Positions 19,888 through 59,038 of a DNA stretch of 64,000 nucleotides are shown here, piece after piece. How positions within the stretch are numbered: the stretch's first letter is position 1; each line of letters starts with the position of its first letter. The DNA is from Lobosporangium transversale (lineage: Eukaryota): assembly GCF_002105155.1 (NCBI RefSeq), contig NW_019028998.1, positions 186,001 through 250,000 of the forward strand, given 5' to 3'. The translations under genes were made by a program, and so were the position numbers. The notes below the pieces were generated by a model that was not told where the DNA came from, searched no databases, and worked only from the letters and a program-made list of their open reading frames with translations.

Positions 19888-20432
19888 TTTTTTTTTTTTT
19901 TTTTTTTTTTTTGGTAAAAAGGACCCAGGGTCATGGGATTTATTTCTCACACTCTATGAACAAAATGCTCCAGAAACTATAGTCAATAAACAGTTATCAC
20001 TGCACAACCGGCGAGAGCTGCTGCATCCATGATTTCATAAACCCTGACCGCCGTGGTTGGTACTTAAAGTCCACCTTTCCGACGTGGCCTGTTGCGCAAC
20101 GCGACAAATTATGCACTATCCGTAGCCATCAGAAACTTCATTCCACCCAGCCACTCCATCACGTCCAGTTTAGTTTTCCCAAGGTAGCTGTCCCGGACTC
20201 GGTTATCCGCGATCTTGTAGATTTCTTTTACATTCAGCTTCTGTCTTTGTCTGAGGGAAGGGACAAGGAAATCATTGCTACTACGTCTGTGCTCCCCAAC
20301 ACAGTTGCCTCCTCTAGCGCGTTTGCTCGTAGCAGTGATTCCACGAGTCTTTTCCCATTCAACGGTGACTTTACACCGTTTGTTCCAGATTTCTGTACGA
20401 CCGAATTCTTCTATGGCCTTGACGAAGCGCCC
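19888..20432 (-). mobile_element. 5'-truncated non-LTR retrotransposon (3' UTR plus last ~107 codons of ORF2)
   Basis: T25 tail 19888-19912. Colinear and highly similar (about 90% by eye) to 41259-41793. Encodes GRFVKAIEEFGRTEIWNKRCKVTVEWEK...KLDVMEWLGGMKFL. Homology stops at 20432. Confidence 0.93.
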
Positions 20433-20492
20433 ATGAACGTTTGACAAAAAGTTTTTTTTTTTCACGCACTTACACAAAAAAGATAGGGATCG

Positions 20493-20533
20493 TCAGGATG
20501 ATCACGTGCGGCTCTCGCTCTTGTTTTATACCC
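20493..20533 (+). promoter_or_regulatory. Upstream element of tRNA-Trp: TCAGGATGATCACGTG (E-box/CDEI-like) plus TATA-like TTTTATACCC
   Basis: CACGTG at 20503-20508 and TATA-like element at about -39 to -30; a matching arrangement lies upstream of tRNA-Ala. Confidence 0.45.
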
Positions 20534-20562
20534 TGTTGAGGCCTTCTAGGCTCCGGTTTAAT

Positions 20563-20635
20563 GGAGGATTGGCGCAATTGGCAGCGCGTCCGTCTCCAAA
20601 GCGGAAGGTCGGGAGTTCAAGTCTCTCATTCTCCA
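20563..20635 (+). tRNA. tRNA-Trp (CCA), intronless
   Basis: Cloverleaf: acceptor GGAGGAT/ATTCTCC, D arm GCGC/GCGC, anticodon arm TCCGT-CTCCAAA-GCGGA, T arm GGGAG-TTCAAGT-CTCTC; TTTT terminator at 20642-20645. Confidence 0.95.
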
Positions 20636-20655: not shown

Positions 20656-21246
20656 GGATTAATCTATTTGGCAGCCCATACCAAATATAGTAATTTTTGC
20701 CTCTATTTGGCAGCCTACTTCTGGGGGCTGCCACTTAACTTCGCACTCTTGGGTGGCAGCTGGGCTGCCAAATACATTACTTTTTTTTTTTTTTTTTTTT
20801 GATAAACAGGGTCATAACATCAGTGGTAAAACAAGCAGCGTTCTGTGGATACATTGCCTTGCACAGCTAATGCCGCCGGAGGTACTAAGGGCAGCGGCGA
20901 TGACATCTTCACAAAACAGCCTTCAATGTACACGGTTAGGGAATGGTTTATTGAAGACGTCTAGGTAGTAGGTGAGACGCGTTTGCTCCGAGCGAAAACC
21001 TCTCATAGGCATTGATCTCCAAATGGCACCTCCAAAACTGTATGAGCGACCTACTTGAAAAAAAAAAAAAAATAAATAAATAAATAAATAAATAGTTAGA
21101 GGCCAAATAGCCCTGGGTAGGCTGCCAAGTAAATAATGAATGTTATTTGGCAACTGGGCTGCCAAAGAGAGTCTTGAAAGTTGATTATATTTGGCAATGG
21201 GCTGCCAAATAATATTTAGCAACTAGGCTGCCAAATAGATTAATCC
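20656..21246. mobile_element. Non-autonomous TIR DNA transposon (MITE, Mutator-like), family 1
   Basis: Perfect 21-bp TIRs GGATTAATCTATTTGGCAGCC (20656-20676 / 21226-21246); exact 9-bp TSD TAAAATGAA (20647-20655 / 21247-21255); many subterminal TATTTGGCAGCC / GGCTGCCAAATA repeats; no ORF. Confidence 0.92.
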
Positions 21247-21270
21247 TAAAATGAAATGAAAACAACTTTT

Positions 21271-22070
21271 GATGGAGTTATTTGCACGACTCCATACACA
21301 CCTTATTTACATCGCAAATGATTTTTTATTGGGATGAAGTTATTTGTACGGCCCCCGTGCAAATATCTTTTTCCTTTTTATTGCACGGGAGTGTTTTATA
21401 TGGAAATGTCGGTACCCTTAGTGCTATAGGTAAGGTCACTCATTCCAAACCCAATTGGGCTTGCTTTGTCTGGAACTACTAGCAGGCGCCGAAGAGTAAC
21501 TTATTCAAGTGGGCTTTACGCTTTCTGGCGAATGCTAATAGTTGTAGTTATGTGATGAGTGCAACAAAGCATAGTATGTGACCAATCTAGACAACCTTCA
21601 CTGAGGATAATCCTATGTTGATGGGAAGCACAGGAGCTCCTGTTGAACTTGTTAACATTCAACAAAAAAGGCTCACTGCTGTAGACCAATGTATCTTTTT
21701 GGTCATAACATCCAGCTATAATCCTATAATCCAGTCACAGTAACGGCTAGAGATGCATCAATGTATTTATGTGATCCTAATGTTTCCTGCCTATTGATGT
21801 TTTTATTGAGAGGAAGCTCACCAATTAAAGGCGGATTTTTTCTTGAAGGCTGAAATAATAACTCCTCGTGCGAATAAAAAAAATATATTAATGTGTATGG
21901 AGCTGTACAAATGTCTTTTTCCTTCTTTATTTAGTCCCAGAGTCGCATGAAGAATAACAGCATCTACTCTGGGTTACGTATGACCTTGATAAGATAAATA
22001 TTCTGGTAGTATTTGATGCTTGTGTCGTGGAAGGCTTCCTGGTAGTGGTATTAAAGACTGAATTACATAC
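21271..22070. mobile_element. Fragments of TIR element family 2 (two left ends plus internal segment)
   Basis: GATGGAGTTATTTGCACG at 21271 and GGATGAAGTTATTTGTACGGCCCCCGTGCAAATA at 21332 (identical to 45754). 21928-22070 is homologous to 47158-47325. Confidence 0.8.
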
Positions 22071-23890
22071 CTGATAAATTCCCCCTATTTTGTCGGATAT
22101 GTGGGAAGTTCTCTGAGACGGAACAACATCTGCTCTTCAGTTGTCCCAAGAAGCTGGAAGTGTGGCAGGGCGTTATGAAGAAATTTTTCGGAGAAAACGA
22201 CTGGTCAGCCTTCCTACTGGAGTCGCTATTCTATGTCAACCCGATGAGGATCAATCCACCAACAATGTGCCTGCCTTCTTGTTCTTTAGTACCATCCTGG
22301 CAACAATCCGAAAATATCGCCATATCTGTGTCCTTCAAGGAGAAGACTTTGATGTGCCACGTGTCTTAGCCGGTATCGTATTTCCCTGAGGCAGGTATGC
22401 GAAGTAAGAGGTGTTAAAAACTATAGGGAAATATTACTTTTGTACACAAATATTTGTTTTTCATTTTGCATACCAACTAACAATGCCCTGCTTGTGATAG
22501 TTCAGACTTCGAGCTACCGAATACTATGATGTTAAGCAATAACGTTTAATAGCGAAGCGACGATAATAAAATACCTGTGGTTTACTATAGTACTATTCAA
22601 TTTGATAGGAGTTATATTCCTTCACTTATTATGGGCTTCAGATGGGAAGTTGATGATCTGCAATGAAAATATATGGCTCAGCACAATATCTTCTACAAAA
22701 GCTGACACTTAGATCATAAAATTGGACCGCTACTGTCGATATCCAATATCAAAACCAAAAATGCCATATGGTTTTAACGCTTCTTACTTTGCATACCTGG
22801 CTCAAGGAGAAAGCTCGTTCTACAATACATGTATTGGAGCATCTATGGAGCAAGAGCTTTTATATAGGCGGATCGAGGCTGATAGAAAGCAATGGTTTGA
22901 TTTGTCCGTTTTGAACTTCCATAACTGAGTAAATGACTAGGTATATGTATACTTTCCTTACCAATATTACAATAACAGTGATAGACCATATCCTCCCTAG
23001 CATTTCTTCCACCAAGATCAAAAGGCATCATGCAACCACCGTCCATTGCGACGAGGCAAGTCCTCGTTGAGATATTAAGGTAAAAGTAAAAAATTAAAAC
23101 ATTCACTTAATTCTGTATCCCATTCGTTCAGTAGATATTGTTTTATTATCAATCCGCTCCAGCTAATATTACAATGTTGTGGTCGATATCAAATATTAAT
23201 AGTTAAATATTTGTCATGATTTGGCTAATATTTTAAAGTTTCTTTAATATCATGGGTCAAATCGGATCTTTTGTGCGAAATACGTGTATGGCATAACTTC
23301 GTCCGTATAAAGGGCAAAAATTTCCATTATAAATAAATGAGTTCAAGATCCTGTATTGCCTTAAAACTTTTTTTCGGCGTGTGTATTGCCGGTCAAAATA
23401 AATAACCGAAAACTAACTAAACTAACTGCTATGGAGCCAATCTGACTTCTTTATTTCTCCAAATAAAAATAACTCTTGAAGACTTACACATGATCCTAGC
23501 GTCTGCTTGGTGGCTCCCATGGCATCATTTGATGGTGTTGAGGGCTTGATTTTTATCCGGTATGCTACATGAACTTACAATGTTTAAATTCATCAACCTA
23601 TGATATAGAGTGGAAGCATTATCTTACTCCTTCCTCGCTCGCTCGCTCCTCCCCAAGTTCCATTATTGTTATCACTACCACTTGTTCCTGTATCTTCCCA
23701 TCAACCTTCTTTTCCTGAACAATTCATCTTCTATCTATTCACTTTGAACTTTTAGCCCAGTCATTAAGCAATAAAACAAACAAACAAAAAAGCTCTCTTG
23801 TTTATACTTTTGCTGCTCTTCCCTTCTTTCGTTTCTTTTCATCGCCACTGTATTTCGCTTCCTTCTTTCCCTTTCACTCGGATATTGACC

Positions 23891-40525: not shown

Positions 40526-40896
40526 TTTTTGATAACCAGAGCCCTAAAGGTCATGGGAATTTTTTGCTACACTCTACACTATAGATAATAAACAGCTATT
40601 AGAAGTAGACTCTATAAATGGGTTGCCCTATTACTAAGGGCGCCCAGCCGTTCCATTACTGTCAGTTCTAATTGTCGCCGATAGCTCCCTCGCTACTCTT
40701 TGGTCAGCTTCCGCCCTGATCGCTTTCACGTCAGCTGTTCGTCGTTATCTCAGGGTAGGTCCTAAGAAATCACCTCTGCTACATCTGTGCTACCCAACAC
40801 AGGTACGTCCCCTGGCGCGTTTGCTCACAGAGGTGATGCCTTTAGTTCTTTCCCAGTCGACAGTGACTTTACAGCGTCTGTTCCAGATCTCAGTCC
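40526..40896 (-). mobile_element. Decayed 3' end of a diverged non-LTR subfamily (distal copy A, tRNA-Ala stack)
   Basis: T5 tail then GATAACCAGAGCCCTAAAGGTCATGGGA. Minus strand translates TEIWNRRCKVTVDWERTKGITSVSKRARGRTCVG*HR...DFLGPTLR*...ADQRV / LTVMERLG, homologous to the ORF2 C-terminus at 41470-41760, with stops and a frameshift. Confidence 0.88.
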
Positions 40897-40927
40897 TTTG
40901 CACCTCCAGAGTTCCCCAAGGGTTTGC

Positions 40928-41258
40928 TTTTTTTTTTTTTTTTTTTTTTTTTTTTTCGTGTTAACAAGAACCCACGGAAGCGAGGAATTTATTTCATAAT
41001 CTCGCTCTAAATCAATTATATCGCCCTCAAATCCACTGGCATGTGGATCCAAATCTTGCGGGGTTGGTCTGAAACTTCTACTTGGATTCCGTCAAACTTT
41101 GTGATCATCGCTGTCTTAGTCGAGTCGGTGGATGGGGAGATGTACCGCTGGTTCGGCCGGGGGGTGGAATATATACCTAAGACGTGTGGCCAGCCAGGCG
41201 ACTTAGGGTAGTGTACCCACGATCTTAGCCTTAACGGAAAACACTAGGCTGCCTCGAA
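40928..41258 (-). mobile_element. Short poly(A)-tailed retroelement (middle copy B, tRNA-Ala stack)
   Basis: T29 tail 40928-40956 then TAACAAGAACCCACGGAAGCGAGGAATTTATTTC, related to the family 3' end and carrying AATAAA on the minus strand. The rest shows no visible homology to ORF2. Confidence 0.65.
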
Positions 41259-44200
41259 TTTTTTTTTTTTTGATAACAAGGACCCTCAGGGTCATGGGAT
41301 TTATTTTCTACACTCTATGAACAAAATGCTCCAGAAACTATAGTCAATAAACAGCTATTACTGCACAAACGACAAGAGCCGCTGTATCCATGATTTCATA
41401 AACCCTGACCGCCGTGGTTGGTACTCAAAGTCCACCTTTCCGACGTGGCCTGTTGCGCAACGCGACAAATTATCCGCTATCCATAGTCATCAAAAACTTC
41501 ATTCCACCTAGCCGCTCCATCACGTCCAGTTTGGTTTTCCCAAGGTAACTGTCCCGGACTCGGTCATCCGCGATCTTGTAGATCTCTTTTACATTCAGCT
41601 TCTGTCTTTGTCTGAGGGAAGGGACAAGGAAATCATTGCTACTACGTCTGTGCTCCCCAACACAGTTGCGTCCTCTAGCGCGTTTGCTCGTAGCAGTGAT
41701 TCCACGAGCCTTTTCCCATTCAACGGTGACTTTACACCGTTTGTTCCAGATTTCTGTATGACCGAATTCCTCTATGGCCTTGACGAAGCGCCCTGCCATA
41801 TATGTAGCTATCCTTGTTGTTGTCTTGAAGCCAACTTTCCAACTCTGAGCAATGGACTTGGGCGTAAGTCCATGGTAAATGTCCTGCACAGACCAATCTG
41901 GTGTGTGCTCTCTCTCTTCCTCATCATCGCCGTTCCTATCACCATGGCGTCGTACTTCTCGCACACCATCGATATGCATCTCCAGAGTTTTCCAAATGTA
42001 GTCCTCCTCTGCCGCAGTAAAAGTTGGCTCTTTTGTCCTTGGTGGGTCTACACCTCTCTCTCTGGCCCTTTGTGCTTGCTCCTGCACTGCTTTCAACTCT
42101 TTCCTCCATGTCCTCTCCCCTATCACATTCACATTTTGGATTATCTCCTTCCACTTCTCGGCCTGAGTCTCCATCGTCCTTGGACATCTCCAGATGTGCG
42201 ATGTGTCTTCATCCTCTGTCCCACACACTCTGCAGTTGCCATCTTCATAAAGGTCCGGCCTCCAGTGTCTCATATATGACTGTGTAGGCAACATTCCATG
42301 GAGTTTCTTGATTCTGTGCGCTCGCTTTTGGCAGTCCGCTGGGCTGGTGAAGAGTCCTTTCGGTAGGTTGCTATCATGAACAATGTTCATAGTAGCTCGC
42401 CAATCAATTTTTGTCCAATCCTTAACATGCTCCTGCGTCCTGTTCTGGGCGATCCAAGTGTGATGTGTACGAGTTGTTGACTGTAACTTAAGGATCTGCC
42501 TTAAGTCATCTTCCGCTGGTACACCGTTGAACTTTGCATGGCAGTACATGTCATTATGCTCCGTTATGTTGATATCCCATAGCTCGCCATAATGTCCATG
42601 TTTGCTGCTTCGTCCGCTTCTTCGTTCCCTCTATTGCCGGCATGTCCTTTGACCCACTCGACCGTGACTTCCGATCCTTGTTGAATAAATGCGTTGTGTA
42701 TAGCTGCCCACCATACTGCATACGGTGATCTAATACGTTGTCGCAACGTGCTATCCACTCTGCCTCGGACCAATGCTCGGAATTGAGTCACAACTGCGCT
42801 GTTATCAAGTCGGATTGTCATAGGTCTGTTTCGTGGGCTGATAAGTATTCCTGCCAACAAACCAGCTAGCTCTGCCTTTGTCGAGGATGCGTTGCCTGCT
42901 ACTCTACCAGATAGCGCAGTGTAAAACTCACCCTCTTGTGTCTGGACTACCACACCAAATGCCAACTTACTCTTTCAGTGCCAATATCTTTGAGAGATCC
43001 ATCCGTATAAATGACATTACCCGGCTGGGTATTGTACCGTTCCCTTTGGCGTTGGATTTTCTCCTCGGTATTGGCACTAATGATAACTCCATTTGTGTCC
43101 CTGGCTAGGCCTCTGTTGACTTCAGGGATCACTTTTAGGCACGGTGTCTCGTTGGAATCCAGGTCGACTTTTGCTCTCCTTAGCAGAGCTTGCTCGCTCA
43201 GACCCTCATATCTCCTTGTGTTCTGGGTCCGGCGTCTCCTCGCTTCTTCGCGGGCTCGCATGCGTTCACTATGCCTTCGCTCTCGGTCCTGGTGGCGTTC
43301 TGCTCTTCTGACTATGGCATCTAACTTTGCTCTTTGTCGCCTAAGATTATGTTCTCTGGTTGCTCTGCGCGCCTCTTTCATAACAGCTCCTCGTCTCTTT
43401 TTCCGCTCCTTCTGTTGATCTAGAATCCACTTAATTCCAATTGGTGGCTCAACAGCTTGATTAGCCGGTGATACTGTCAAAGTTCTGTTCGCTGCCTCAT
43501 CTTTTATGAATTGGTTGAGTGCACGAATCGCTTCTCGATCTTCGTCTTCTGTATCCCCGTCTACCGAGCTGACATAACTACTGTCGCTGTTGCTGTCATC
43601 ATCACTGACGTCTAAGAGTGCCAGTTTCCTCCTGTTCCATTCTCTTGCATGCCTACCCACATAATCGTTGTCGAAGCAAAAGTTTTGAAGTTGGTTGAAC
43701 CAGAATGGCGAAACTTTAGGCCCTCCGTAACGGGTCCTGAATGCGTGCCATGAGATCATGTCCTCCTTATCATCCGTAAGTATTTGATCCACAAAGTATA
43801 CCATACGCTTGGTGAGCGCCTTCCATACGTGTGGTAATTCTCCGTTTAGCCATTTCCATGTCGAGAGAGCGTTGTGTGGGAGACCAAATTCGGCTGCGAT
43901 CGATAGGTCGAAAGTAATGTTACGATTCTTCATTTCTTCACAAACATTCGATATAAAGTTGTGGCGATACTTTTTGACACGATGTGGCTCCAAAGTTGGC
44001 GAGACTTCCATCTTATTCCTGTGCTGCAGCATCAGTACTCGTGTCCGACATATCCGTCCCATTACATTGCTGTCATTAAGTCGAAGCGCCAGGGTAGATA
44101 TTTGTTCTTCCGCTTGAGCGTTCGCCAAGTCTTTGATGGCATACAATCTATTGTGGTTCATAGTGCTGTTTGGCGTAGTTGATGGCATACGTGCTTTCCG

Positions 44201-45472
44201 CTTACACAGTGACATATACTTACCAGTCATCTTCTGTAGGAACGTTGGTGGCAACATTTGGGCCGAAATCCTATACAGCACCTTTGGGATGAGCACATTA
44301 TTGACAATATACGTTGTCTGCCGATCTGTCAGGGCTTTGGACCGGAGAATGTTACAGGTCGTTTCTATTTCCTGCTCCACTATTTGCTGTGTTGCTGTTG
44401 GATTTCCTGTTGCTGTGACCCAAACACCAAGAATCCGTACCGATTCATTCTTTTCCACTGGTCGGATCTCTTCTGTAGGTGTCCCAAATTTCAGCGTGCT
44501 CCTCCTATCCTGCTTGCTGTTGATACAGATGACCTGCGTTTCCTTGGCGTTCACTTCCACCCCGTTAAGAATGAAGAATGTCGTTGCAATGTCAAGTATC
44601 TCCTGCATATGTGCTTTGGAGTCCGATATCCATGTAGTATCATCCACGAAAGCAAGGCCAGTAACTGATGGTGTCCCTCTTGGTCCCTCTAGACTATATC
44701 CAGTGCTACTGTCTATAATTTCACACAGGAGTGCATCATATGCTACTCTCCATAAAAGCGGACATTCCACTCCACCTTGATCCAAACCGCACTCTGGATG
44801 ATACTCGTCAGTTGGTCCGTATTCAGTAATCACCCTGTTCACTTTGGAAATGGCGATGTTTTCACATAGGCGTATGAACTGTTCAGGGACCTGGAGCCGT
44901 CTTAGTCCGCGAGAAAGCATCCCATCGGGGGCGCAGTTGACAGAGTCGAAACACCGTTTCATGTCTTGGAGCACAATCCACTGTTCTTTCTTGAACTCTC
45001 TTGCGTCTTCCATTGCCGCTTGCAGGATATGGATTGGATCCTTAGTGGTAGTACCTTTAAGAACAGAGAAGTTTGGTCCTCGTAGAATATCGTGCCTGGC
45101 CATGATCGCGCTTAACCTATTTGTTATTACTGCAAACATTATTTTCCGTGCGTGCTCCAACAAAGCTATCGGCCTTACCTCTGCCATGTTTCCTGACCAT
45201 TCTGGAGCTTTTGGTATGCAATAGAGGAGCCCCGTCTTCCAATCCTTGGGGACGTCTTCTTGCACGATAGTGGCACTTATGATTTGGAAGAGGATAAAGA
45301 GCCCCTGCGGTCCTTGGTGTTGGATCATTTCGTTCGTAATGCCTGACACACCAGCTGCCTTGTTTTTGGGTGCATCCAGGACCACAGCTGAAAACTCATT
45401 TCTGCTTGAGTCACAACTATCTATGAACAAAGGGCTTGCCCATCCTGACCCGAGCGGAGCAGTTGAGTATAT
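41259..45472 (-). mobile_element. 5'-truncated non-LTR retrotransposon: RT + RNase H + CCHC zinc finger, poly(A) tail (proximal copy C)
   Basis: T13 tail 41259-41271 with AATAAA ~30 nt inside. RT motifs PKNKAAGVSGI, RPIALLE, QDMKRCFDSV, GLDQGGVECPLLW, AFVDD, RILGV. RNase H YTDGS, SSTKAEL, LDN, WVKGHAGNRGNEEAD. CRVC..EDTSHIWRC. No endonuclease or ORF1 present. Frame open to ~45472, so the 5' junction is approximate. Confidence 0.95.
41470..45472 (-). pseudogene. Retrotransposon ORF2, split in three by two 1-nt frameshifts
   Basis: ORFs 42947-45430, 42564-42965 and 41470-42549 join into one polyprotein if one base is added near 42963 (ERVS/xAFGVVV) and one near 42601 (EAA/KHGHYGELWDINITEHNDMYC). 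Confidence 0.85.
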
Positions 45473-45518
45473 TCAGAATGTCACGTGAAGCCGCTTGAAC
45501 TATCATAATTATATACCG
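45473..45518 (+). promoter_or_regulatory. Upstream element of tRNA-Ala: TCAGAATGTCACGTG (E-box/CDEI-like) plus TATA-like ATTATATACCG
   Basis: CACGTG at 45482-45487 and TATA-like element at about -39 to -29; same arrangement as at tRNA-Trp. Confidence 0.45.
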
Positions 45519-45546
45519 GGACACTCAGCAGGTTATGAAACCATAC

Positions 45547-45618
45547 GGGGTTGTAGCTCAGTGGTAGAGCGCTCGCTTTGCATGCGAGAGGCCCGGAGTT
45601 CAATCCTCCGCTGCTCCA
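45547..45618 (+). tRNA. tRNA-Ala (TGC), intronless
   Basis: Cloverleaf: acceptor GGGGTTG/CTGCTCC with the G3:U70 Ala identity pair, D arm GCTC/GAGC, anticodon arm CTCGC-TTTGCAT-GCGAG, T arm CGGAG-TTCAATC-CTCCG; T6 terminator 45626-45631. Confidence 0.95.
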
Positions 45619-45648
45619 TCGAACATTTTTTCCTCCTTGTAGGAAGGT

Positions 45649-45730
45649 GGATAAATCTATTTAGCAGCCCATATCAAATATAGTAATTTTTGCCATTATT
45701 TGGCAGCCTATTTTTTGGGCAGCCAAATAA
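45649..45730. mobile_element. Left end of TIR element family 1 (truncated)
   Basis: GGATAAATCTATTTAGCAGCCCATATCAAATATAGTAATTTTTGCC..TATTTGGCAGCCTA aligns with 20656-20717 in the same orientation; no right end seen. Confidence 0.85.
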
Positions 45731-45753
45731 TGTTTTGCAAAACTAATTTGAAA

Positions 45754-47784
45754 GGATGAAGTTATTTGTACGGCCCCCGTGCAAATAAATTTTTGCTTAT
45801 AAAAAAAATTATTTGCACTGCCCCGTACACACTCTATTTACACTGCTCCCCCCGTACAAATAAAAAAAAGTTATTTGCACGGGGGGTCTTTTTTTTATTT
45901 GCACGGGGTCTCTTTTTCATCTACAAGCAGCAACGTGTATCCTACAGACTACATGATTCTGGCTTTATATAAATAAGTGGAGGTGAGTTTAGAGTAGAGA
46001 GGGGTCTGGAATTATTACTGGTGGAAGTTGCAGCGCCGTGGGAGCTGCCAAACAGCTCATTTGTGACATACAAAAATACTACCATTAGACCCATATAGCG
46101 TATACGATGATTTAAATTACCACTCACGTGGGGCAGACAAGAACCCTCTCTTTGTCCTCCTTCTTAGTTGGTGCAATGTTTTAACCTAATTGATATAACT
46201 TATTATGTAATATGGAGCTAAAGTTCAATAAATTTACCCTTTTATTAATGAGGCAATGTGGATAATCACTGAAGTTTTTGGGCAGTACAGGCTGAGGGAA
46301 AACGGCAAGAAATAAGATTGAAGACAGTGCTTCTCTTCATTACCATTTCAAGTGATTGTACAATATGAAGCTGGTCCTTTAGACGCAGTGAGCATCTACA
46401 TGTGCTGCTGAGTATGCAATACTGCGTGCTAAAGACGAACCAAGGTAAGTTGGCTATGATAATAAACTTGGAATGTAATGAGACAAAACTAAGGATTGTT
46501 GCGATTAGCAGTCATTTATATGGGTTTTTACTATAGCTAAGGTTTTTACCCTTTTTATTTAACGAAGATCCCTGGATCATAATAAAGACATCTTTTTTTC
46601 GTTCTCGCTAATTATTATGACCCTGGCATATTTCAATAACAGAAAAGAATATTTATGTCTCTTTTCTATCACTATTAGTCACGGTTATGCTATTAAAGTA
46701 TTTTAGCCACTAAGATATAGAGATATAGGTGATTGTGCACGTTCGGCTTTGAGTGCGAACTGTCACCAACTATCAAAAGACAAGTAATATCGGGTAAGAA
46801 GATAGATATTCCACAAAATAAGCTGAGGTCTACCCATTGCATTTTGATGAATTTGATAAACAGAAAGGGAAAAGAAAGAGAGTAGGTAGTAACACGGCAC
46901 GCTATACATCGTAGAAATGAGTATGATTGTATGATTGTTTGTATATCTACCGAAACAAACTACACGTTAGAGGTTCCTAATAACTGAACTCATCGTTGTG
47001 TGCTTAATAGTGTACGGAAATACCTAAGATATATGCACGCGTTAAATGAAAGAAAGCATCAGGGAACCATCCACAATCTATAACAATGCAACCAACAAAA
47101 GTGCAAAGTAAAGCTGCATAGTATATTTCAATTATAGATAGATCATTTGTAATTCTGTATTTAGTCCCAGAGTCGCATAAAGAATGCCAACATCTACTCT
47201 GAGCTACATACGACCTTGATTAGATAAATATTCTGGTCAGTATTTGATGCTTAGGCAGCGGCTCTAGATCTAAGCCTGTGTCGTGGAAGGCTTCCTGGTT
47301 ATGGTGTTTAGGGCTGAAATAAAGACCCCGTACAAATAAAAAAAAAGACCCCCGTGCAAATAATTTTTTTTTATTTGCACGGGGGGAGCGGTGTAAATAA
47401 GGTGTGTACGGGGCAGTGCAAATAGATTTTTTAAATATTTGTACGGCCCCCATGCAAATAAGAGGTGTACGGGCCCGTGCAAATAAGAGGTGTACGGGCC
47501 CGTGCAAATATCTTTTTTCAATTTGGAAAAGATTGATTGCCTTGTTGCACTCACCATGTAATTACAAATATTAGTGTTTGTCAGAAAGAGTAAAACCCAT
47601 ATGAATAAGTTGCGCTTCGGATAGAGCGACGACAATTGGACTTGAAATGAGTGACTTTGCTTACAGTACCAAGGTATCAACATAAAGAAACACCCCGTTA
47701 TATATATATATATATTTTTTTTTATTTCCATGGGAGGAACAGTGTAAATAAGGTGTGTACGGGGCCGTGCAAATAACTACATCC
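45754..47784. mobile_element. Non-autonomous long-TIR DNA element, family 2 (probably nested copies)
   Basis: Ends GGATGAAGTTATTTGTACGGCCCC (45754) and GGGGCCGTGCAAATAACTACATCC (47784). ~45800-45920 is an inverted copy of ~47316-47435. Repeated GTGCAAATA/TATTTGCAC units, including 25-bp tandem units at ~47452-47510. No TSD and no intact ORF. Confidence 0.8.
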
Positions 47785-48280
47785 AAATATATTGTAAAAA
47801 TATGGTCGCCGTCGCTGCAAAGGAAAAATGGGTCCAAATGAGAACCACCCATTGCCATTTTTATTGTGTTTACTGTCTTCATCCTGATTCGCTGCTGGCA
47901 TTATACATGTCTTCTCTCAATGGCGCGGTTTTATTGATCTTTCATAATAATCAACATGCATTGCAGCGACGACAAAAAAAGGGCGGCTCAGTCTAATCGC
48001 ATTACCAATAGTGAATATTAATAACTAATGCTTCCTTCTTGCATTCTTGAGGAGGAAGAGCTGTCATATATTTCGTCTAAATGGACATTATCAACAACAC
48101 ACGCAGTATACAAAGCAGTTTTCATACAGCGATACAAGATCCTGTTCTGATATCCTATTGCTAATTTATCCTGCGGATCATGTCTATTCATAAAATTGCT
48201 TTCTTATAGCTGGGGCATAAAGAGATCAAAAAACTCGCTGCATGATTATTTAACCAAGGCGTAATATTTTAATGCAATGC

Positions 48281-56654: not shown

Positions 56655-59038
56655 GTTGGTTATTGCCGCGCTGTCAACAAGCTCCCGTTACCTCCTGCTT
56701 TCGTGTCCGATACCTCTACTCTTCTACAAAGACATACCCGTCCTTGCTGAAGGCTTGGAGGTAGAATGATCAACGGATGTTCGTGTACAAAATTACAAAC
56801 GCTGTGACCCGCCATCACACTGCGATAACAGAATGCTTGGCACAGAGTGCATATAACCCTTTTGGTTTAGCTATAATAGATAATTGAGGGAATGAGCAGG
56901 TAGGAGAGGGAGAGTGTCAACCAGCATTCATTAGTTATCGACAGCTTATTTATAATCCCCTAGTTCGTATCACTTCTAGGGCGGGGATATTATTAGTGCA
57001 GTTGCTTTTTGAGGTGGTATAGGCACTATGGGCTACAGCCCTTGTAGATCCAAAAGCTCTAGGTAAGCTGTTGAGGCCGTACTTCAAAACCTCACTTCCT
57101 AAGGTAGGCCATCAAGGGCCTTCAACGGTTTGGCAGATAAGTGCATCACAGTTCTGGGCGGGAATAACGTTCGGGTCTTAACAGTTTTTTGTAATTAGCA
57201 CGCCTGCTTCAAATCCATATTCTCTGCCCGTTCAGCTGTACCAGAGGAGGCATGTCGCAAGCGTATACTGCGGACCCAGCGGCCAGTAGCCAGGTTCGAT
57301 AAGGTTTTTCATTTTGCTCATGTAGAGATATTCCTTGACCCTTGCATTTTCTCTTATGTTTCTAGTTCCTTAAGGCACTTTCCGGTACGCCTAAGCGCCT
57401 GAACCCTCTTTGATGCGCTTACGGTGAATTGCCTTTTCACTAGCTTCGGTACCGCTCAGAAACAGAGCAGTATTTCAGATGCTAAAGTCCGCCTTGACTC
57501 GCCTTTGTTGGCATGGGTAATATATATCTTACCGCAAAGTGGCGTATACTTTCCGGATACTCATGAAAAAGCACGTCTGAATGTTTACACAAACACGATA
57601 TCATCAAAATTTGACCGAATCCATATCTAGGACCAGAGTTAAATTTTTGTTTAGAAATGGCTACGAACAAGGGGTGGTCCTATACATATATATTGCAAAA
57701 GGCCCCTTCAACGAAGCTTCATAGCGACGTCCTAGGCTCTTTGGTTTCATCTCCTTAGGTAGCTATATTTGGTTTATATAGCACAGGCAGGGATCGGTGA
57801 TGGAGACCATAACCTTTCCTTTGAAAAAAGTGTCCAAAGGCTATGGATACCTATCTTCTACTCGTGAATGTGCAGAGTGAATAATAAGGATACTTTCCAA
57901 CTTTCTATATGCTTTGATTAAGAAGGTTAACTCAGCCCTACTGTAATTATTTAATCCTACTATAGGCGTCAAGAAAGCTAAGACTCAAAACAGTCAATAG
58001 TGCACTCTACTGAGTCTCATTGCAATTGTCAAAAGAAAAGGAAAGATAAGCGTCGATGGTGATATCATCTATTCAATACTGAACAGTGGTATATGTGCGT
58101 GATAATCTTTTACAGTGAAATGGTGTGAGGTGCTTGGATGCCAAAGAGAGCCGCAAACCCACAATCCAACAGTCAGACGCTTTCAACGATAAATATTACA
58201 AAAACCATATTGCGCTCTGTGAACAGCCGTGATTGATCAAGGAAGAAAGTCGATTTTTTGACCAACACATGCGAAATTATCTATTATAGCTAAACCAAAA
58301 GGCATATACAATTGAAGCAAGCATTCAGCCGTTATCGCCAAATAGCATAACTGCTGCGCCAAAGTGAAGATGAGAGACGGCACGAAGACGTGAGGCAACA
58401 AGGAGAACCATATAGAGGTTAGTCCAATCGAAACGAGCACTGCGGCAGGGAAGTTGGCCCTCTCCATTGGCTACGGTCCTAATTCAAACAGCATCAATAT
58501 AACAGGACCCTCTAGAGCTGATGAAGCTGTACAGATGGAAGAAATATCAAGAGCAACTCAAGAGGTCCAAAGATGAGATGCGTCCAAAAATGCGATCCCA
58601 AAAAGGACAAAGAGGTGAAATAGGGAAGAATAAACTAGAGGATGTAGGTAGGAAAGGGCTGTCGTCAACCGATCGACGCATCTGATCACAACACTCGATA
58701 GCGGGACATTGAAGGCAATCGCTGATAAAGCCTCGAATGATCGCGTAGAGGTTGTTCGTTTTGGCTTTTGAGAGGTCATTGTTGGTGTAAGTGAGCTCCA
58801 TGTTTCCAAGGAGTGCCTAGAGTAGCAGAATTATGGTTATATGCACTCTGTGCCAAGCATTCTGTTATCGCAGTGTGATGGCGGGTCACAGCGTTTGTAA
58901 TTTTGTACACGAACATCCGTTGATCATTCTACCTCCAAGCCTTCAGCAAGGACGGGTATGTCTTTGTAGAAGAGTAGAGGTATCGGACACGAAAGCAGGA
59001 GGTAACGGGAGCTTGTTGACAGCGTGGCAATAACCAAC
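56655..59038. repeat. 204-bp near-perfect inverted repeat (56655-56858 / 58835-59038) around a 1976-bp spacer
   Basis: Base-by-base comparison shows one mismatch in 204 bp (GCCgCGCTG vs GCCaCGCTG). No TSD in the outer flanks; no long ORF inside. Confidence 0.93.

Follow-up and report, generated by a model that had tools for sequence, protein, structure and literature searches.

Stacked LINE-type retrotransposon copies upstream of two tRNA genes in Lobosporangium transversale point to probable position-specific integration

We analyzed a single 64-kb window of the soil fungus Lobosporangium transversale, of the Mortierella family (64,000 nucleotides of contig NW_019028998.1, numbered here from the first nucleotide of that stretch), in which copies of a family of long interspersed nuclear elements (LINEs) lie in two stacks, each upstream of a tRNA gene (Table 1). 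The locus analysis thus covers two loci. ARAGORN and Rfam identify two tRNA genes in the window, tRNA-Trp(CCA) and tRNA-Ala(TGC), both on the plus strand; relaxed ARAGORN calls were discarded as noise. Upstream of tRNA-Ala, three minus-strand units with a common 3' terminus stand head-to-tail, with E1 outermost, then E2, and E3 innermost, an arrangement that the initial annotation had described and that we confirm with minor changes to the boundaries. Two related minus-strand units, A (outer) and B (inner), precede tRNA-Trp, the only other tRNA gene, in the same orientation relative to the tRNA, again as first described. In all five units the 5' end faces the 5' end of the tRNA gene, such that element and gene are head-to-head and the element is antisense to the tRNA.

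Table 1. Units, domains, spacers and tRNA genes of the two stacks
Feature	Position	Strand	Description and basis
E1	40526-40897	-	Outermost 5'-truncated LINE remnant: C-terminal end of open reading frame (ORF) 2 with in-frame stop, 3' untranslated region (UTR), 5-nt tail
E1/E2 spacer	40898-40927	.	30 bp; final 10 nt repeated at 45430-45439 (one mismatch)
E2	40928-41256	-	5'-truncated non-coding multi-copy unit; 29-nt tail, family 3' terminus
E3	41259-45408	-	Innermost 5'-truncated LINE; 13-nt tail; ORF2 remnant; without endonuclease and ORF1
CCHC finger of E3, C-terminal	42184-42234	-	CX2CX8HX3C; motif
RNase H domain of E3, frameshift-split near 42964	42600-43010	-	Pfam RNase_H E=2.2e-09; alignment to P0001
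Reverse transcriptase domain of E3	44420-45217	-	FVDD motif; Pfam RVT_1 E=2.4e-19
Spacer E3/tRNA-Ala	45409-45546	.	138 bp; TCACGTG at -66, TATA-like run at -38
tRNA-Ala(TGC)	45547-45618	+	ARAGORN; Rfam 64.5 bits
A	19557-~19887	-	Outer LINE remnant: ORF2 stop region, 3' UTR, 5-nt tail
B	19888-20432	-	Inner 5'-truncated copy of E3 subfamily; 25-nt tail
Spacer B/tRNA-Trp	20433-20562	.	130 bp; TCACGTG at -61, TATA-like run at -37
tRNA-Trp(CCA)	20563-20635	+	ARAGORN; Rfam

All five units share a conserved ~35-nt motif at the 3' end, followed by a poly(A) tail. The units upstream of tRNA-Ala had been taken for three poly(A)-tailed copies of one family. This stands for the common 3' terminus and for the tails of E2 and E3. 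On the other hand, E1 (like A) keeps only five T, 144 of its 192 bases aligned to E3 are identical (~75%), and E2 shares with the family only its last ~60 nt. To survey the window, we used an nhmmer profile made from the 3' ends of four relatives only, with no window copy included. It gave five matches at E<=0.002, all of them within the two stacks, and the next match had E=2.2. Homologous proteins also match the window solely inside the Ala and Trp stacks. Hence, in these 64 kb, the family is seen nowhere away from the tRNA genes, in line with the first reading of the sequence.

The inner junctions lie at similar distances from the two genes: 138 bp for E3 and tRNA-Ala, and 130 bp for B and tRNA-Trp, 8 bp apart. 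The innermost 5' end had initially been put ~75 bp from tRNA-Ala, where an upstream stop codon (45472) was taken as the end of the element; that figure must be corrected. We set the gap at 138 bp because the ORF aligns to the full-length relative P0001 from 45406 onward (tblastn), other copies in sequencing run X1 extend beyond 45408, and a 198-nt X1 contig of single-copy depth (120.7) covers 45379-45576 without a difference. As the assembly itself may derive from run X1, the run serves as a check of the junction but not as an independent strain. When later insertions are subtracted, all five junctions fall 117-168 bp from the tRNA. The sole features common to both spacers are the 7-mer TCACGTG (20502-20508 and 45481-45487; four occurrences in 64 kb) and a TATA-like run. 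TCACGTG is a possible upstream promoter element for RNA polymerase III (Pol III).

Judged by their sequences, the units are dead, 5'-truncated copies of a Mortierellaceae LINE together with a probable partner short interspersed nuclear element (SINE). E3 retains reverse transcriptase (RT), RNase H and CCHC finger domains, and relatives carry an apurinic/apyrimidinic (AP) endonuclease, which bears out the proposal of a LINE-type element in a fungus. The ORF2 of E3 is interrupted by frameshifts near 42600 and 42964, and its 3' UTR corresponds to 41272-41469. B is a close relative, identical to E3 at 492 of 520 aligned bases (94%). For comparison, we used four related loci (L001-L004) from one metagenome scan, the contigs of which are collapsed repeats; none were found in viral contigs or prokaryote genomes. 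E1 matches P0001 with 63% identity (tblastn, E=1e-20) and L002 at 191 of 254 aligned bases, and other copies of it extend beyond 40897; it is a remnant of a divergent LINE subfamily. A, with a 5' end between 19873 and 19887, matches L001 and L003 (blastn) and the 3'-end profile (E=1e-07), and is a remnant of a further subfamily, separate from E3. At least three LINE subfamilies and one non-coding unit are present at the same two spots.

Contig depth is about 2,600-2,800 near 42100-42600 and 836 at 45255-45408, versus about 120 for single-copy sequence. As a rough guide only, depth steps down toward the 5' end from ~24 to 7 times single copy, the pattern that 5' truncation would produce, and by the same rough estimate the E3 subfamily has ~24 or more copies. 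The family shows both a 3' poly(A) and variable 5' truncation, the features by which AP endonuclease (APE)-type LINEs are recognized. Nine junction comparisons yielded one candidate target-site duplication (10 nt, one mismatch), for E2; its shuffle rate is 0.00095, and it was found post hoc. If this duplication is accepted, E1 lies 137 bp from the tRNA. We have low confidence in it, as 23 junction bases are left over unexplained. Analysis of the shared 3' end for conserved RNA structure gave a consensus helix of three pairs only, with no covariation.

Full-length relatives provide the parts that are missing in the truncated window copies. Recovery of such a copy had been proposed at the outset as the way to learn the ORF1 and endonuclease type, and the relatives indeed encode ORF1 and an AP endonuclease. 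L001 encodes a ~600-aa ORF1, whose RRM and CCHC matches are weak and fall below the cut-off, and a 1,887-aa ORF2 with the order APE-RT-RNase H; Exo_endo_phos is present in all four of the long relative ORF2 sequences scanned. Among solved structures, the best match to P0001 is human L1 ORF2p (E=2e-19), followed by R2 (1e-14). The named relatives nearest E3 are from Mortierellaceae, namely a protein of L. transversale itself (97% over 54% of the C-terminal query) and one of Entomortierella parvispora (60% within the RT). Relatives are widespread in this family, including Entomortierella, Benniella, Gamsiella and Podila. Of 20 protein clusters looked up, 4 carried an organism name, and no dictyostelid protein is among the named relatives. 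A tree of 100 RT domains, made without named clade references, places E3 among Mortierellaceae proteins, and named Glomeromycotina proteins lie further out.

The related loci also bear on E2, for which we find no ORF2 homology (best E=0.011). E2 contigs have about 30x single-copy depth, and other copies extend beyond 41256. Run X5, which may be RNA, also covers E2 deeply; we do not use this as evidence. L004 (541-1445) and L001 (1-910) each hold a unit of ~900 bp that is non-coding, carries A and B boxes and ends in a LINE-like 3' tail. The boxes stand at tRNA spacing (L004 574); this pattern occurs in 28 of 20,000 shuffles, and its only matches in the window are the two tRNA genes. Neither ARAGORN nor Rfam calls a tRNA in the unit, and ORF2 homology is absent. 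With this set of defining SINE features, the unit is a candidate tRNA-derived SINE of a Mortierellaceae-like host. Motifs of E2 and the L004 unit are collinear, with a score reached in 12 of 1000 shuffles, and E2 is cut before any head. In addition, a 16-nt motif of other E2 copies, picked by eye, has a counterpart with a single mismatch at L004 675-690 (0 of 200 shuffles). E2 is probably a truncated SINE. We found no SINE partner in print for Mucoromycota.

In L001 and L004, LINE and SINE units directly follow one another's poly(A), so that stacking is a habit of the family. Some of these junctions carry inverted sequence: the first 19 nt past the SINE tail of L001 (912-930) are an exact inverted copy of the LINE 3' subterminal motif, and similar inverted pieces of the 3' end are seen at L001 1-15 and L004 1451-1519. 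These may reflect a terminal feature, twin priming or an assembly artefact. The tail of L001, which is 100% identical to its own interior, may likewise be an assembly artefact.

We consider it likely that the two stacks were built by position-specific, protein-tethered integration of the LINE and its partner SINE upstream of Pol III genes, in the manner of the TRE5 elements of Dictyostelium. The Pol III complex, or some factor bound at the 5' flank of the tRNA, would tether ORF1p or ORF2p. An AP-type endonuclease would then nick about 110-140 bp upstream, outside the protected promoter region, and the common 3' terminus with its poly(A) would be where target-primed reverse transcription begins. 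New insertions would land on the tRNA side of the resident copy and displace it outward. Such an order has been described for TRE5-A tandems (PMC5391098). Tails of 5 nt in the outer units versus 13-29 nt in the inner ones fit growth from the tRNA side at both loci. Sequence divergence also fits newer copies on that side: E3 has 8 differences from the collapsed family contig in about 2,580 bases (~0.3%), whereas E1 and E2 each have at least 5 differences from contigs in <300 bp. Taking the first-picked locus as given, and assuming uniform survival over 14-21 kb of non-coding DNA, we calculate a chance of 0.003-0.005 that the second stack would end 140 bp or less from the other tRNA in that orientation.

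The downstream sides of the tRNA genes are occupied as well. A Mutator-like element with terminal inverted repeats (TIRs) at 20656-21246, flanked by a perfect target duplication of 9 bp, starts 20 bp past tRNA-Trp. Its left end recurs at 45649-45710, where it starts 30 bp past tRNA-Ala and is oriented alike; no further occurrence of the TIR is seen in the window. This may be a DNA transposon with a preference for sites downstream of tRNA genes. Within the TIR element, a 20-nt T-run is followed by sequence loosely resembling the family 3' end (20781-21072); it has no match to the 3'-end profile and was rejected as a family member. A second fold-back family with tandem sub-repeats comes after the TIR at both tRNA loci (21267-21376, 45754-45932, 47302-47790). 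Another repeat is common to 21916-22366 and 47146-47327, and at the Trp locus it continues into a zf-RVT remnant (E=0.00017, below the cut-off), likely from another LINE family. The TIR element, these further shared repeats and the zf-RVT remnant indicate that the tRNA flanks collect several element classes, by targeting or by tolerance.

Several observations weigh against tRNA-directed integration. Targeting, likely as we hold it to be, is judged from two loci, of roughly 24 or more E3-subfamily copies. For E1, E3, A and B, the junction comparisons show no clear target-site duplication. An intact tRNA gene is present in 0 of the 4 related loci, none of which reaches unique 5' flank or a tRNA, and a second species thus lends no support. 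The case originally put forward for a Pol III-targeting LINE-type element is supported in part: in the window, a LINE-type family is stacked in TRE5-like orientation upstream of both tRNA genes, and the flanks are non-homologous. A distance of 130-138 bp is unlike that of any non-LTR (long terminal repeat) element in Table 1 of PMC5911963. The spacer-free head-to-tail joins can also be made by template jumping in a single event, and the unrelated repeats shared downstream of both tRNA genes are what a permissive island would contain. Among X1 contigs across 41480-45630, no joint of the element to another tRNA-Ala was found in the 6 of 12 loose ends listed. A contig with a second tRNA-Ala stops 155 nt upstream, as if a repeat began ~125 bp upstream; we do not count this as support.

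If the tRNA flanks were such an island, the elements would have no preference for Pol III genes, inserting for example at T/A tracts; copies would survive in tolerant tRNA flanks and stack by way of older poly(A) tails. The crowding of the downstream sides by the TIR element, the fold-back family and the zf-RVT remnant is consistent with this, as is the high copy number of 45611-47647. Poly(A) tracts are targeted by Zorro3 of Candida (PMC7175516), the relatives stack without a tRNA gene in view, and the uniform survival assumed in our chance calculation is precisely what an island would deny. Yet most of the ten non-coding gaps of at least 800 bp in the window hold no copy, and neither do most of its dozens of poly(T/A) runs. 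Moreover, targeting of poly(A) predicts that the outer copy is the youngest, whereas the outer tails are the most decayed, and the 8-bp agreement and the orientation are left unexplained. We regard a permissive island as the less likely explanation, though one to be taken seriously.

Alternatively, template jumping by the RT may have laid down each stack at once, which would leave two events, possibly still directed by the tRNA gene. E2 adjoins the tail of E3 with 2 nt between them; units directly after poly(A), and short inverted 3'-end pieces at junctions, are seen in L001 and L004; and internal duplications for E3 or B were not found. All of this is in keeping with a single event per locus. 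The 30-bp spacer past E1, with its candidate duplication, and the greater decay of the outer copies are not, and we give this explanation a low probability. Duplication of an element-tRNA block, or an assembly artefact, is very improbable: B and E3 are 94% alike and downstream repeats are common to both loci, but the tRNA isotypes and truncation points differ, the alignment of the outer flanks is no better than that of shuffled sequence (score reached in 80 of 200 shuffles) and that of the spacers barely better (67 of 1000), so the loci are not duplicates, and the single-copy contig from X1 (the possible assembly source) crosses the E3-tRNA junction unchanged. Shared unique flanking DNA, named in the initial annotation as the sign of a segmental duplication, is thus absent.

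Position-specific integration of this kind would resemble, in several respects, that of TRE5-A/B/C. These are also non-LTR elements with an AP endonuclease and poly(A), place the 5' end toward the tRNA 5' end, use several isotypes and form tandems (PMC5391098, PMC5911963). The distance differs, with TRE5 elements 40-54 bp upstream versus 130-138 bp here. TRE5-A of Dictyostelium discoideum inserts at about 47 bp, adjoining the TFIIIB footprint (PMC5391098). The analogy to TFIIIB contact drawn at first is therefore weaker than proposed, since our junctions are well outside that site. This longer spacing would suggest a longer reach of the tethered protein, or exclusion by a TCACGTG-bound factor or the first nucleosome. 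In TRE5 itself, TFIIIB is bound by ORF1p and a B box is required. Furthermore, TRE5-A ORF2 has the order APE-RT-zinc finger without RNase H, whereas E3 and its relatives have RNase H. By distance and RNase H, the Lobosporangium family is not a member of TRE5, though it would be TRE5-like in its working.

Other known systems share some of these traits. The dictyostelid non-LTR elements NLTR-A (D. purpureum) and NLTR-B (P. pallidum) resemble the Lobosporangium family in their domains, as their RT is followed by RNase H, and lie upstream of tRNA genes, but at 2-6 and 39-64 bp; the comparison is by description only (PMC5006619). Yeast Ty1 and Ty3, like other fungal LTR elements at Pol III genes, are position-specific upstream of tRNA genes, and the Ty1 window, which extends to ~1 kb, includes 130 bp (PMC5911963). 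They have LTRs and integrase, however, and the Lobosporangium element has neither. The pairs Mg-SINE/MGR583 and SINE2-1_BG/Tad1-24_BG combine a tRNA-derived head with a LINE-shared 3' tail, like the L001/L004 unit and probably E2; they are ascomycete elements, and targeting of tRNA genes is not stated in the accessible text (PMC3747384). Zebrafish Dewa is a non-LTR element tied to tRNA loci (PMC3706591), but within the spacer of a tRNA-Leu array, whereas here two isolated, different tRNA genes have only the distance in common. Table 1 of a 2018 review gives position-specific non-LTR targeting upstream of tRNA genes in social amoebae (dictyostelids) only (PMC5911963). The accessible parts of PMC7175516, PMC3956500, PMC3706591, PMC3747384 and PMC10386755 mention no non-LTR element of fungi that targets tRNA genes, and we found no fungal non-LTR precedent in the literature covered, which excludes Repbase, Dfam and most subscription papers.

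Tentatively, these comparisons can be taken a step further. A Mortierellaceae LINE with RNase H, together with its own tRNA-derived SINE, may have evolved Pol III targeting independently of the dictyostelid TREs, at a new distance of ~130-140 bp beyond the TFIIIB footprint; with a TIR DNA transposon landing 20-30 bp downstream, tRNA loci would be targeted from both sides by element classes that are unrelated. If targeting is real, its occurrence in a fungus, at another distance and with another set of domains, would amount to an independent origin of tRNA targeting, and the tethering mechanism would become comparable across kingdoms. It could also provide a safe-harbour integration tool for oleaginous Mortierellaceae. 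One further element in the window, at 56655-59038 (2.4 kb, with 204-bp near-perfect inverted repeats), lies remote from any tRNA gene.

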